A DNA stretch of 32,000 nucleotides from an uncultured Chloroflexia bacterium (GTDB lineage Bacteria; Chloroflexota; Ktedonobacteria; Ktedonobacterales; JADMIN01). The stretch lies in contig CAVRAI010000003.1 of the NCBI GenBank assembly GCA_963718915.1, positions 330,001 through 362,000 of the forward strand, in the 5' to 3' direction. The notes beneath the pieces were generated by a model. The model was not told the origin of the DNA and made no database searches. It saw only the letters and a program-made list of their open reading frames with translations. The translations under genes and the position numbers were made by a program. This document shows positions 854 to 10,180 of the stretch, piece by piece. How positions within the stretch are numbered: position 1 is the first letter of the stretch; every line of letters starts with the position of its first letter.

Positions 854-882
854 TTGACGCGGTGAGTGAGGCTGGCTATAGT
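854..882 (+). promoter_or_regulatory. Sigma70-type promoter for the aroH-tyrA leader
   Basis: TTGACG (854-859), a 17-nt spacer, then TATAGT (877-882), in an AT-richer divergent intergenic region. Confidence 0.55.
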
Positions 883-888
883 GCTGGC

Positions 889-981
889 ATGATGAGATAT
901 CCCTCACAATATGCGGATAGCTATTACCGGCGGCCCTCTGGCACGGTGGATCGGGGTATTCCCGTGCGCGCGATGAGGTGA
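889..981 (+). CDS. Candidate 30-aa Tyr-rich leader peptide ([30 protein letters not shown]), possibly leaderless
   Basis: The ATG at 889 is 7 nt downstream of the -10 hexamer. Tyr codons start at 898, 910, 922 and 925. The ORF lies between the promoter and the intrinsic terminator, upstream of tyrosine-branch genes. There is no homology support. Confidence 0.35.
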
Positions 982-1017
982 TAGATCGCCGCAAGGTGTA
1001 ACCGCCAGCCAGAGGGT

Positions 1018-1047
1018 AAGCAGAAGCGAGAGTGCTTCTGCTTTTTT
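1018..1047 (+). terminator. Intrinsic terminator in the aroH leader
   Basis: Perfect 10-bp stem AAGCAGAAGC / GCUUCUGCUU with a 6-nt loop (GAGAGU), running into a U6 tract (1042-1047). Confidence 0.8.
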
Positions 1048-1117
1048 GTTGTCCTCTGCTTCCCTCTCTCCTGTGGGTGAGGGGGTGAGGGGGCGAGGTC
1101 AGGGGGAGTCAATACTG

Positions 1118-5283: not shown

Positions 5284-7245
5284 CTACGGCGTTCGCGAGC
5301 GGGACGGGCGCTGGATCCAGACGGCAATCGTAAACATGAGTCCCAGTAGCGCCAGGATGGGCATAATCGCCCATGACGCCCATACCAGCACGCCAGAGCT
5401 ATCAATGCGAAGCGGGTACCAGCAGAAGAGCCAATTGAGCAACGCCAGCGCCACAATGCCACCAGGCAGCGCATACAGGGTAAGCCAGAGGCCCGCTTCT
5501 TTGTCGAGAATTGAAGGTATGCTAAAAGCCAGGACAATCAGGCCAAAGAGCGCGCCACAAATAAGTCCGCTTACCTCCCAGCCAAAGAAACCAACAGTGA
5601 GGCCGATAACTGCGCCAGCAAGCCCCACAAGCGCGCCTATCCCCAGCGTTGAGGCCAGGGACCCAAAGAAATACTTGGCGGCACGGCCATCGACTACCTG
5701 AGATATGATCATGATCACCTCACCAACGGCAATGAAGAGCAGCCCGTACGCCGCGCCGAAAAGCCCGCCAAATGCCCAGGGAGTATTCGTGGTCAGTTGC
5801 AATGTTCCCAGATACGGAAAGTCGTAGGCGCGGATTGCTGGCGCGGCGGGCAAGACGTTGGCAATGACAAACGTCACCGTGGTAGCAACGACGATTGCGC
5901 AAAGCGCCATGGCAGCCATGTCGAACGGGCTGGCGACACGACGATATCCCAGATAATAGCCCGCGACCGAGAAGAGGGCGACAAGCACGGCAATCACGAT
6001 GGCCGATTCTATCAGTTTTTCCAGGCCACTCGCGCTCACAACGTTTGACGCAATGGGACGCCCCGTCGCCACCAGGCCGCCGAGCACACCAATCGCGCTC
6101 AGCATAACAAGGATGTAGGGCAAAAGCGCTACTGGATACCGTGTTGAAAACTTCTCTTTGCTATAAACCGCCCGCGCCTCCTGTTTCTCGGTAGCCGCCT
6201 CCTGTTTCTCCCTTTCCGCTACTGCCGCTTCGTATGACTGCGGCACGCTCAGGTGAAGCTGCGAGGCGAGGTTCTCGGGGTCACCATAAAAAGGCGCTTC
6301 GGCCCATAAATCGCGCAACTTTTGGCGGGCGAGGTCAAGCTCGTGGCGTTTGACCCGATCACCTACGATGGCATACATATCCTCGTATTTCTGGTTATGT
6401 GTGGCCACGCCAAGCGCATCCTTCGCGCCACCATTTTTGGAATCCAGGACAAGAATTGCCTGCCAGTCGGTAATCTCGCGTCGCCATTCGCCGTTCTGTC
6501 TCGCCCGGCGAGCATCGGCGCGCAGGTCGTCAATGCGCATGTCCTGGAGCCTTTGCCGTAATTGCTTCAGGTCTCTGGCGACACGACCATTGAGATAGTC
6601 TGGACTCTCATCCACGATCTGCTGAAAGAATATCGCGGCCTGCTCAAGCTCTCCCCGCACATAGGCGGCATCTCCTTTATCGTAGAGTTCTTTGAGGCTC
6701 AGGGCGGGAGAAGGCGGCAGTGGTTGCGGCGGAACGAGTTCTGGCTCCGTCATCGCGGGCGCACCGGACGAACCGCCTGGGTGCGGCGCTTCAATCGGTC
6801 TTGATTGATGGGACAGGCTTGTCGAATCAATGGGCGTCACTGGCGGCGCCAAGCGCGCAAGGGTATTGACAAGGTTTCTCAGCGCATCATCATACGATCC
6901 CTGAAAATCCACCCATTGAATGTCATTTAAGTCGAATGGGACTTTCTCAACAGGCTTATAGAGCACAGGAATGACTACCAGACCCAGCGTATTGAGCGCA
7001 TAGCGATACTCAAGCTTGACGTTCCGCGAAGCGACGGCGTCGGGCGAGAGGATAACAACCACGACCTGACTGCGCTCAATCGCGCCCTGTATCGCATCTT
7101 GAAAATCCTGGCCGCCTTCGAGCTTTCGCCGATCAACCCACGTATCGAATCCACGCGCTTTCAGGCTCACGTCAAGTCTGTCGGCAAACGATGTGTCTTT
7201 ACGGGAATAGCTGATAAAGACGCGGATTCGTGTCTGCTCTCTCAC
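5284..7245 (-). CDS. TIR domain protein with a helical/TPR-like linker and a C-terminal polytopic membrane domain
   Basis: The N-terminus reads RIRVFISYSRKDTSFADRLDVSLKARGFDTWVDRRKLEGGQDF...VVVVILSPDAVASRNVKLEYRYAL, a TIR_2-type pattern that includes the conserved Glu position. The middle region is helical, e.g. LKELYDKGDAAYVRGELEQAAIFFQQIVDESPDY. The last ~300 aa contain roughly 8-9 hydrophobic segments. I place the start at GTG 7245 (GAGGG 7 nt upstream); the ORF is open to TTG 7326. Confidence 0.8.
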   Translation of the reverse strand: MREQTRIRVFISYSRKDTSFADRLDVSLKARGFDTWVDRRKLEGGQDFQDAIQGAIERSQVVVVILSPDAVASRNVKLEYRYALNTLGLVVIPVLYKPVEKVPFDLNDIQWVDFQGSYDDALRNLVNTLARLAPPVTPIDSTSLSHQSRPIEAPHPGGSSGAPAMTEPELVPPQPLPPSPALSLKELYDKGDAAYVRGELEQAAIFFQQIVDESPDYLNGRVARDLKQLRQRLQDMRIDDLRADARRARQNGEWRREITDWQAILVLDSKNGGAKDALGVATHNQKYEDMYAIVGDRVKRHELDLARQKLRDLWAEAPFYGDPENLASQLHLSVPQSYEAAVAEREKQEAATEKQEARAVYSKEKFSTRYPVALLPYILVMLSAIGVLGGLVATGRPIASNVVSASGLEKLIESAIVIAVLVALFSVAGYYLGYRRVASPFDMAAMALCAIVVATTVTFVIANVLPAAPAIRAYDFPYLGTLQLTTNTPWAFGGLFGAAYGLLFIAVGEVIMIISQVVDGRAAKYFFGSLASTLGIGALVGLAGAVIGLTVGFFGWEVSGLICGALFGLIVLAFSIPSILDKEAGLWLTLYALPGGIVALALLNWLFCWYPLRIDSSGVLVWASWAIMPILALLGLMFTIAVWIQRPSRSRTP

Positions 7246-7436
7246 GACTTTGCCCTCAATTGCATCTGTAACCAAATCGAACACGATGTAGCAGTGGACG
7301 GTAGTTTTGAAGTGTTTTCGACGCAAGAACTCCTCGATGAAGATACTGAACTAGCCGCTAGTCTAGCATGCAGCCAAACTTACGGCAAGCACGAGAAAGC
7401 TGGCTTCTCTGTGGGCGGCCAATGAAGACCCACCGA

Positions 7437-9283: not shown

Positions 9284-10180
9284 GTGACACACCCCCCTAT
9301 GGGAAAGGTCGAAATCATGGGCGATGACACCGGGCAGGCGTTAAAGCCAGTGGAGCAGGATACTATCATGTTCTACGGCCATGAGCTAGTCGCCGTGCGC
9401 CTGGCAGATGGGCGGATCGCGGCGGTACTCCGCTGGCTCTTTGAGAGTCTGAATCTGGAGCGTAGAGGCCAGATGCAGCGCATCGAACGCAAGACAGCGT
9501 TGCGCAAGGGTTTGATTAATGTGGAAGTGGACACGCCCGGCGGCCCACAAATTATGTCCGCCCTGACGTTACAGGTATTGCCCGGCTACCTCTTCACAAT
9601 TGACGAAAGCCGCGTCAAAGAGGAAGCCCGCGCCGATGTGATTCTGTTCCAAGAGGAATGCGTTGCGGCGCTCGCCGAGCATTTCACCCGCAAGCATCCA
9701 CCAGCCCTCCCGTCGGCAACAGATGCCACAGCGGCAACGGTCATCATCGAGCAGATCGCCGACTTAACCGGTGTTATCAACCTATTGCGCGAACATTTGG
9801 AGATGCTGTTGGTGTTGCCCAGCCAGGTGGCCGAACTCTCGGTAGAGGTCAGTGAGACACGGGTATTGGTCGAGTCACTAGCAACGCGGCAAGACGCCAC
9901 GGAAACGCACCTGGCAGCAGTCGACGCGCGCACCCAACGCCTGACACCAGCGCATGCGCGGGCGGTACAGGAGATGGTGAATCGTATGGTGCGCGAGACA
10001 AGACACAGCGCGACGCCATTCACCTATGCCATCATCTACGGCAAGTTGAAGACACGCTTTCAGGCAGGCAGCTACAATGAGATCGCAGATAGTCGCTTCG
10101 ACGATCTGATGGCATGGCTACGTGAGGCGCTCAACAACGCGACGAGCGGAGAAGCGCCTGAGCAGGGGAGTCTGTTCTGA
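9284..10180 (+). CDS. Phage antirepressor-like protein (P22_AR_N-like N-terminal domain plus ORF6C-like C-terminal domain)
   Basis: IMFYGHELVAVRLADGRIAAVLRWLFESLNLERRGQMQRI...GGPQIMSALTLQVLPGYLFTIDESRVKEEARADVILFQEECVAALAEHF fits the P22 antirepressor N-terminal pattern (F.G..L...G...V......LGL....Q...I......G.Q.M..L.L..LPGWLF.I....V....R..L..YQ.EC). The C-terminus (LTPAHARAVQEMVNRMV...YGKLKTRFQAGSYNEIADSRFDDLMAWL) is ORF6C-like. The start is uncertain: GTG 9284, ATG 9299 or ATG 9317. Confidence 0.7.
   Translation: MTHPPMGKVEIMGDDTGQALKPVEQDTIMFYGHELVAVRLADGRIAAVLRWLFESLNLERRGQMQRIERKTALRKGLINVEVDTPGGPQIMSALTLQVLPGYLFTIDESRVKEEARADVILFQEECVAALAEHFTRKHPPALPSATDATAATVIIEQIADLTGVINLLREHLEMLLVLPSQVAELSVEVSETRVLVESLATRQDATETHLAAVDARTQRLTPAHARAVQEMVNRMVRETRHSATPFTYAIIYGKLKTRFQAGSYNEIADSRFDDLMAWLREALNNATSGEAPEQGSLF

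Follow-up and report, generated by a model that had tools for sequence, protein, structure and literature searches.

Leader-peptide attenuation is textbook knowledge for the biosynthesis of Trp, Phe, His, Leu, Thr and Ile/Val. T-boxes read uncharged tRNA directly, without translation. For the Chloroflexota, we know of almost no experimental work on gene regulation. In Escherichia coli, at pheL-pheA, pheM-pheST and trpL, stalling of a ribosome at hungry codons brings about the antiterminating fold (PMC11802643; PMC9413887). The aroR leader of Corynebacterium glutamicum (Phe-Tyr-Phe), located upstream of aroF, responds to Phe limitation, and Tyr is reportedly without effect (Neshat et al., 2014, as described in PMC11802643); a study of mycobacteria presents polycysteine leaderless short open reading frames (ORFs) as cysteine-responsive attenuators (bioRxiv 10.1101/834739). 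A 2005 survey of Actinobacteria listed no RNA element for tyrosine genes and gave T-boxes as the known RNA-based control for tyrosine (PMC1262725); among 12 Chloroflexi genomes, only 4 were predicted to have leaderless genes, making up about 4.7% of genes (PMC3160421). Here, we analyzed a stretch of 32,000 nucleotides from an uncultured Chloroflexia bacterium of the Ktedonobacterales (contig CAVRAI010000003.1, positions 330,001 to 362,000; hereafter the window), in which the region 854-1117 separates a divergent pyrR-like gene (minus strand, ATG at 530) from a chorismate mutase gene starting at 1118. A preliminary description of this region had proposed a tyrosine-sensing attenuator. The evidence presented below supports a Tyr-codon leader-peptide attenuator on a transcript predicted to be leaderless, belonging to a family conserved across Chloroflexota. 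The author of that description knew of no Tyr-codon leader described for a tyrA operon, and our full-text literature search, which did not cover a 2010 Russian-language survey of attenuators (Lopatovskaya et al.), likewise found no described Tyr-codon leader, tyrA attenuation or Chloroflexi attenuation.

A promoter scan and alignment place a promoter at 844-882 of the forward strand, with a −35 box TTGACG (854-859), a spacer of 17 nt and a −10 box TATAGT (877-882), as had been described; it matches 10 of the 12 consensus positions. Promoter-like sites numbered four in the 2.2-kb region, against 0.8 expected from shuffles. The A of an ATG, A889, lies 7 nt past the −10 box (6 nt separate the end of the box from the ATG), at the predicted position of the transcription start. 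It opens an ORF (889-981, forward strand) of 30 codons followed by TGA (979-981), with Tyr codons at 898, 910, 922 and 925. The promoter, the ATG at the predicted start and the Tyr-rich ORF are thus all as previously noted. The cluster of Tyr codons, in turn, is narrower than had been thought: the pair formed by TAT (922-924) and TAC (925-927), the putative regulatory codons, is conserved, but the Tyr codon at 898 is common to only one relative (L003; see below) and that at 910 is not conserved. Because the ATG of this and related leaders is only 6-9 nt past the −10 box, the leader transcript would be leaderless; we infer from the sequence a transcription start at, or within one base of, A889, as well as translation of the ORF and the ribosome geometry discussed below. 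In an alignment of seven close relatives the −35 and −10 boxes are nearly invariant and the spacer between them is variable. A block formed by the −35 box and the 10 nt upstream of it (TTATGTCTACTTGAC, 844-858) is invariant at 14 of 15 positions in the same sequences; this block could be a transcription-factor operator or a UP-like element acting on top of the attenuator.

An AroH alignment was used for a scan of a genome collection, which gave 80 aroH loci for comparison. The closest homologues of the window chorismate mutase belong to the Ktedonobacterales (Chloroflexota). The layout of the window (a σ70 promoter, an ATG, an ORF with a run of Tyr codons and a terminator) is shared by 17 other Ktedonobacterales loci (L001-L012 and L015-L019), which together with the window give 18 Ktedonobacterales leaders, and by an additional metagenome contig, L174. 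This contig was the only true leader among 120 stretches returned by a pattern scan of metagenomes, the pattern being too degenerate. At the loci with this layout the leader ORF has 25-37 codons, with an N-terminus that is variable but in frame and a run of two to four Tyr codons. The window leader could be aligned with those of six close relatives, L001-L006. In these seven sequences, little or no change is seen in CTATTAYCG, CCCTCTGG, CCAGCC(A/T)GAGGG and the full length of the terminator, and the stretch of approximately 33 nt from the ATG to the Tyr pair is poorly conserved. Even so, each sequence has an ATG 6-7 nt past the −10 box that is joined to TAT TAY by an open frame free of stop codons. 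L004-L006 carry one additional codon ahead of the run, and in L005 and L006 an insertion of 3 nt turns YY into YYY. The 11 more distant Ktedonobacterales leaders (L007-L012 and L015-L019) have an ATG 6-9 nt past the −10 box, an ORF of 29-37 codons, two to four Tyr codons (for example, ...SFYYYYRQ... in L008 and ...SSYYYRL... in L012) and a terminator. A comparable promoter, with a −10 box ending 6-9 nt ahead of the ATG, was found by the scan for 15 of the 18 leaders; in L019, GATACT, read by eye 7 nt ahead of the ATG, had been missed by the TAnnnT filter of the scan.

Across the 18 leaders, the ATG, the frame and the run are kept while the 11-15 preceding codons diverge and change in length in multiples of three. 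The run itself expands by whole TAY codons, from YY to YYY and YYYY, with exchange of TAT and TAC inside it, and Phe or Trp codons appear in frame beside it in relatives. Tyr accounts for 9.9% of the 555 leader codons, against 2.9% of the 6,892 codons of 12 ORFs of the window, a 3.5-fold enrichment (TAT is used 39 times and TAC 16 times in the leaders). A frame kept through insertions and deletions, growth by whole codons, exchange of TAT for TAC and in-frame Phe or Trp codons point to selection on codons read by a ribosome; a conserved RNA motif by itself would not account for conservation at the level of codons, which supports translation of the leader. Orthologous leaders that kept the helices and lost the ORF or its Tyr codons would have spoken for a riboswitch or a protein-binding leader; the opposite was seen.

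Equivalents of the leader ORF, likewise located between the promoter and aroH, were also found at about 35 loci of the Anaerolineae, including that of Anaerolinea thermolimosa IMO-1 (L026), where a related leader has mixed Tyr and Phe codons (for example, MQTRPLSPRYYYFYFYGKRTPVAGGGA and MLKSARWFAFYFYYGFRGSVAVGGA) and an ATG 10-11 nt past the −10 box. In this leader type (L026, 2847-2990; also, for example, L030, L032-L039, L044 and L051), Tyr and Phe alternate, as in YYYFYFY or WFAFYFYYG, the C-terminus is conserved as VAVGGA or AGGGA, and the −10 box reads TAGAAT or TAAACT. A hairpin begins in the last Tyr codon, a long-range helix joins the start and the end of the ORF, and a terminator precedes aroH, a DAHP synthase gene and tyrA; no evident antiterminator was found in the Anaerolineae leaders. 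The leader is absent from the Acidobacteriota loci, from those of Bacillota (the Desulfofundulus isolates L049 and L059 and the metagenome-assembled genome (MAG) L045) and from a Planctomycetaceae MAG (L072).

The composition of the run tracks the content of the operon. Pure Tyr runs precede operons with only aroH and tyrA (the window, L001-L006, L009 and L015). Where a Ktedonobacterales operon also encodes DAHP synthase, the run mostly includes or adjoins Phe or Trp codons (L008, L010, L011, L016 and L018) or has them within two codons (L007 and L012); L017 is an exception. In the Anaerolineae operons, with aroH, DAHP synthase and tyrA, Tyr and Phe alternate (YYYFYFY or FYFYY). This is what amino-acid-specific attenuation predicts; it is a trend and not a proof.

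The genes under control had been given as aroH and tyrA, for chorismate mutase and prephenate dehydrogenase. The two functions stand, but they reside in a single fused gene in close relatives: an AroH-class chorismate mutase joined to a prephenate dehydrogenase (Pfam CM_1, PDH_N and PDH_C), at 1118-2397 of the forward strand in the window. The fused gene is intact, encoding 421-431 aa, in L001, L002, L003 and L005; at L009, aroH and tyrA are separate but adjacent. In the window, the reading frame changes twice, near 1497 and at 1856-1866, one of the two at a run of C, and these breaks may be due either to indel errors in the assembly or to a pseudogene; the fused gene of L004 is also broken. 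Just downstream of tyrA lies a gene for a regulator of the AsnC/Lrp family (2408-2948), with its own promoter.

The leader RNA (162 nt, 889-1050) folds with −67.5 kcal/mol, against −52.7 ± 4.1 kcal/mol for shuffled sequences (z = −3.65), and none of 200 shuffles was as stable. The intrinsic terminator reported at 1018-1047 is present: the terminator scan (1018-1051, forward strand) gives a stem 1018-1028/1033-1043 of 11 pairs, one of them G-U, with a loop AGAG, followed by UUUUGUUG, a U-run at 1042-1047 and GUUG. This terminator is invariant in the seven close relatives, and a covarying equivalent (GCAGAGGC:GCCUCUGC and others) is found in all Ktedonobacterales leaders. In the first 8-10 nt after the U-run (1048-1054 in the window), the sequence is semi-conserved as GUUG(Y)CC in most of these leaders. 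Between the terminator and aroH, the window has an insertion of about 40 nt (1056-1100), with a C/U-rich arm followed by G-rich repeats (CCCTCTCTCC...GGGTGAGGGGGTGAGGGGG), common to L003 only and absent in the other close relatives; CCUCUG (1053-1058) could also pair with the 3′ strand of the P1 helix described next.

Upstream of the terminator two structures compete. The 9-bp helix noted earlier, in which CCCUCUGGC (934-942) pairs perfectly with GCCAGAGGG (1008-1016), is present and is extended by G933-U1017 in the minimum free energy (MFE) structure. This helix, P1 (933-942:1008-1017), closes in the MFE fold of 889-1050 a multi-helix domain (P1 domain, 933-1017, forward strand, assigned by MFE and covariation) that includes P2 (945-949:1002-1006) and small hairpins and abuts the terminator stem. 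The inner hairpins (952-964 and 968-999) are variable and contain the leader stop codon; neither the sequence nor the length of the interior is conserved, the helices alone being kept. The second structure, hairpin A, a candidate anti-antiterminator (927-954, forward strand), consists of an inner stem (933-935:945-947) within an outer stem (927-930:951-954) and starts with the third position of the last Tyr codon. Since the two structures share 933-935 and the 5′ strand of P1 lies inside hairpin A, they are mutually exclusive, and both covary. For hairpin A, whose strands in relatives are, for example, CGGCCCGCCC:GGGUGGGCUG or CCGGU...ACCGG, four of eight pairs show compensatory changes (RNAalifold, 17 leaders); local folds predict it in all leaders, with −17 to −31 kcal/mol for a 52-nt segment that includes neighboring small hairpins, and it is weakest in the window. 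For P1, the whole-leader alignment made with MAFFT misaligned the 3′ strand in several sequences, and covariation was therefore assessed on constructs anchored by hand at the conserved CCC/GGG. In these, 94% of the cells of the 10-bp core are paired, with compensatory changes in six of the ten pairs (compare CCCUCUGG:CCAGAGGG in the window with CCCUUUGG:CCAAAGGG in L008, GCCCUUCGA:UCGAAGGGC in L007 and GCCCUCCGC:GCGGAGGGC in L018); sliding the partner strand by 1-3 columns, as a control, lowered the pairing to 31-50%. An alternative pairing of 927-933 with 1002-1008, proposed earlier as a competitor, does exist, with six of seven pairs, but is not kept in L004 and was for that reason discarded as part of a conserved switch.

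How a stalled ribosome would act on these structures was examined by masking a footprint that extends from −15 to +12 relative to the A-site codon. When no ribosome is present, the MFE structure of L007, L009-L012, L016, L018 and L019 consists of hairpin A and the terminator, and with a ribosome at the stop codon this remains so in L007, L010-L012, L016 and L019; masking the first Tyr codon replaces hairpin A by P1 in the predicted folds of L009, L011, L012, L018 and L019. The core of P1 begins 4-7 nt past the last Tyr codon in most leaders, and the boundary of the ribosomal helicase is at about +11 to +15 from the first P-site base. On this modeling, a ribosome paused on the Tyr run would most likely lie over the 5′ strand of hairpin A, with its leading edge close to the start of P1. 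Contrary to the earlier suggestion that it would occlude 934-942, the stalled ribosome probably covers 927-932 and leaves 933-942 just free, so that the helix 934-942:1008-1016 would be favored, and not prevented, by stalling.

We therefore consider it likely that the leader is a ribosome-mediated transcription attenuator that senses the charging of tRNA-Tyr and controls the aroH-tyrA gene. Transcription would begin at or within a base of A889, and ribosomes would initiate on the 5′ AUG of a leaderless mRNA. When Tyr is plentiful, the ribosome would pass the Tyr pair (922-927) and reach the stop codon (979-981); behind it, the local hairpin A (927-954) would form and bury CCCUCUGGC, the terminator (1018-1047) would form with a free 5′ flank and transcription would end before aroH. 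When Tyr is scarce, the ribosome would stall with a Tyr codon in the A site, its footprint covering 927-932 and ending at about the start of P1 (933/934); P1 (933-942:1008-1017) and P2 would form once their 3′ strands are made, P1 would hinder completion of the terminator and RNA polymerase would read into aroH-tyrA.

The last step has a clear basis in some of the relatives. In L007, L010, L011 and L016, 7-9 nt of the terminator stem belong at the same time to the P1 3′ strand (GAAGGGCAG...), and P1 is therefore a classical antiterminator there; in L012, L019 and L002 the two have about 3 nt in common. In the window, L001, L003, L008, L009, L015, L017 and L018, both overlap and gap are 0 nt (in the window, P1 ends at 1017 and the terminator begins at 1018), and L004 and L005 have a gap of 1 nt. 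The earlier statement that no clean antiterminator could be derived thus holds for the window clade, where there is abutment only, but not for the relatives, where four loci share 7-9 nt. From the nucleotides that P1 and the terminator stem share in these four relatives we infer, by homology only, that P1 would block the terminator in the window.

Several observations weigh against the proposed mechanism. P1 and the terminator have no nucleotides in common in the window clade, and in L006 they are separated by a gap of 4 nt. Abutment need not block termination, because in the OFF states of riboswitches an aptamer helix and a downstream terminator coexist. We folded fragments downstream of the ribosome, leaders with masks at the first Tyr codon, the last Tyr codon and the stop codon, and prefixes ending in the terminator loop; the terminator was kept in every thermodynamic fold of the window clade, whatever the position of the ribosome. 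Nor did RNAduplex searches against the upstream leader, in the abutting class, find a conserved alternative partner for either arm of the terminator. Hairpin A of the window is weak and P1 is the MFE structure even with no ribosome, so that the switch would have to be kinetic. Finally, the alignments from which covariation was assessed were anchored by us on CCC/GGG, and the sequences are phylogenetically related.

Other pairings were considered and set aside. A classical antiterminator was rejected for the window clade, the terminator being always predicted and its 5′ arm finding only a 4-bp partner upstream (UCUG:CAGA, by RNAduplex) and otherwise staying unpaired. Pairing of the 3′ arm with 912-922 (−10 kcal/mol) is long-range, acts in the wrong physiological direction and is not conserved. 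The mRNA 5′ end pairs with the U-run in several MFE structures; we took this pairing for an artefact, given that the U-run is still part of the RNA-DNA hybrid when the choice is made. An extension of P1 into the terminator arm of the window (C931:G1020 and G930:C1021, across an internal loop) is paired in only 45% of cases across the leaders and would lie under the stalled ribosome.

For the window clade, an alternative to competition for base pairs is steric antitermination anchored by the ribosome, with no sharing of bases. P1 would bring the foot of the terminator hairpin up to the stalled ribosome, or would at least make the 5′ flank of the terminator a rigid duplex, so that the lower part of the terminator stem could not close within the RNA exit channel. 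P1 does begin at about the end of the stall footprint and stops at the start of the terminator, with a gap of 0-1 nt in most abutting leaders; we regard this proposal as tentative and rather doubtful. Physically, an effect of P1 might arise if a duplexed 5′ flank does not fit into the exit channel, if the polymerase collides with a ribosome that P1 keeps beside the base of the terminator, or if weak pairing between the flank and the U-tract is lost.

Attenuation by a translating ribosome was also weighed against explanations that dispense with it or give it a different role. The first of these is an RNA acting independently of translation, in which the P1 domain binds a metabolite (tyrosine, prephenate or chorismate), a protein or a tRNA, and the ORF is incidental. 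The stable, three-way-junction-like domain directly upstream of the terminator (z = −3.65), the conservation and covariation of P1 and the conservation of UAUUAY also as a string of nucleotides are all compatible with such an RNA. However, the sequence and the length of the P1-domain interior vary, leaving no invariant core; with the helices alone kept, there is no conserved ligand-binding core of the kind expected for a metabolite riboswitch, which was rejected. On the forward strand, Rfam gave no match at the gathering threshold in the whole window, or at E ≤ 10 in 500-1200; the T-box model (RF00230) was among those with no covariance-model match at either level, and the Phe, Trp, His, Leu and Thr leader families had none at E ≤ 10 in 500-1200. 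Because there is no Rfam match on this strand, the leader is neither a T-box nor a member of a curated leader family, and any tie to the amino-acid leaders of Rfam is by mechanism and not by sequence family. An RNA-only model also leaves unexplained the ATG, the frame, the expansion by whole Tyr codons, the exchange of TAT and TAC and the in-frame Phe and Trp codons, and we judge it improbable.

A peptide that arrests the ribosome on sensing free tyrosine inside it, as TnaC does for tryptophan, in place of tRNA-Tyr charging, is very improbable. The segment near the run looks conserved, as D-S-Y-Y-R-R-P-S-G in the window clade and Y-Y-R-P-A-L in others, but the codons for the conserved residues that follow it lie in hairpin A and P1, whose nucleotides covary as RNA; moreover, the number of Tyr codons in the run varies from two to four, relatives have Phe or Trp mixed into it, and arrest by abundant tyrosine would favor P1 and hence read-through, inducing a biosynthetic operon when its product is plentiful. 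It is likewise very improbable that 889-1047 is an independent gene for a small RNA or a small protein, with aroH expressed from elsewhere: the strong promoter and the strong terminator, which form a unit of about 160 nt, would suit such a gene, but in two Chloroflexota classes this unit invariably stands directly before aroH and in the same orientation, the promoter scan found no promoter-like site between the terminator and aroH (1047-1118) and the peptide is not conserved outside the aromatic run.

The neighborhood of the attenuator holds other features. On the minus strand, 607-752 matches the PyrR binding site of Rfam (RF00515) with a score of 39 bits, below the gathering threshold of 54 (E = 9e-4), and is the only match nearby; it ends in a terminator-like hairpin with a U-run, upstream of the phosphoribosyltransferase/PyrR-like gene (ATG at 530), and a promoter-like site is found on the same strand at 790-761. 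Judged from the sequence, this is probably a divergent PyrR attenuator that shares the intergenic region. Farther away, the minus strand encodes at 5284-7326 a protein of 680 aa that has a TIR domain at its N-terminus and, judged by the translated sequence, a long hydrophobic C-terminal region, and an ORF at 9284-10180 has the N-terminal domain of a P22 antirepressor; both may be defense-related or mobile-element genes, unrelated to the attenuator.

A leader peptide attenuator that reads Tyr codons is of interest in several respects. The Tyr-codon leader is conserved across two Chloroflexota classes, and its motif can be used to annotate the regulation of aromatic amino acid genes in Chloroflexota genomes and MAGs. 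Its leaderless transcript would make it a natural system in which to study the coupling of transcription and translation, and attenuation, with ribosomes loading on a 5′ AUG. The occurrence of overlapping and of abutting antiterminators and terminators in one family offers a built-in comparison as to whether overlap of base pairs is required, and antitermination by a P1 that merely abuts the terminator is the part that could prove mechanistically new.

In comparison with known systems, the leader resembles the tyrS-type T-boxes, with their Tyr specifier, in its proposed input, the charging of tRNA-Tyr, and in its proposed output, read-through of a leader terminator; unlike them, it has no match to the T-box model, no specifier loop and no T-box sequence. 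It is like the mycobacterial polycysteine ORFs in that the transcript, as predicted, would be leaderless and would open with a short ORF whose peptide is rich in one amino acid and which would attenuate a downstream operon, but it differs from them in the amino acid, Tyr and not Cys, and in the phylum, Chloroflexota and not Actinobacteria. With pheL-pheA, pheM-pheST and trpL, it has in common a short ORF with a run of codons for the end product, alternative helices and a terminator upstream of a gene of an aromatic branch. Unlike in pheL and trpL, the codons are for Tyr and not for Phe or Trp, there is no relationship by sequence or through Rfam, and the mRNA of the Chloroflexota leader would, by its geometry, be leaderless, with no Shine-Dalgarno sequence; in addition, the role of anti-antiterminator would fall to a local hairpin around the 5′ strand of the antiterminator, as opposed to the 1:2 pairing, and the putative antiterminator of the window clade abuts the terminator with no overlap. 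The closest aromatic precedent that we found is aroR of C. glutamicum, where a leader peptide with aromatic codons also attenuates an operon of the aromatic pathway in a lineage of Gram-positive type. The Ktedonobacterales leaders depart from it in having a pure Tyr run of two to four codons and in the gene under their putative control, that for chorismate mutase-prephenate dehydrogenase, and the Anaerolineae variant, with its Tyr and Phe codons, is nearer to aroR in its logic.

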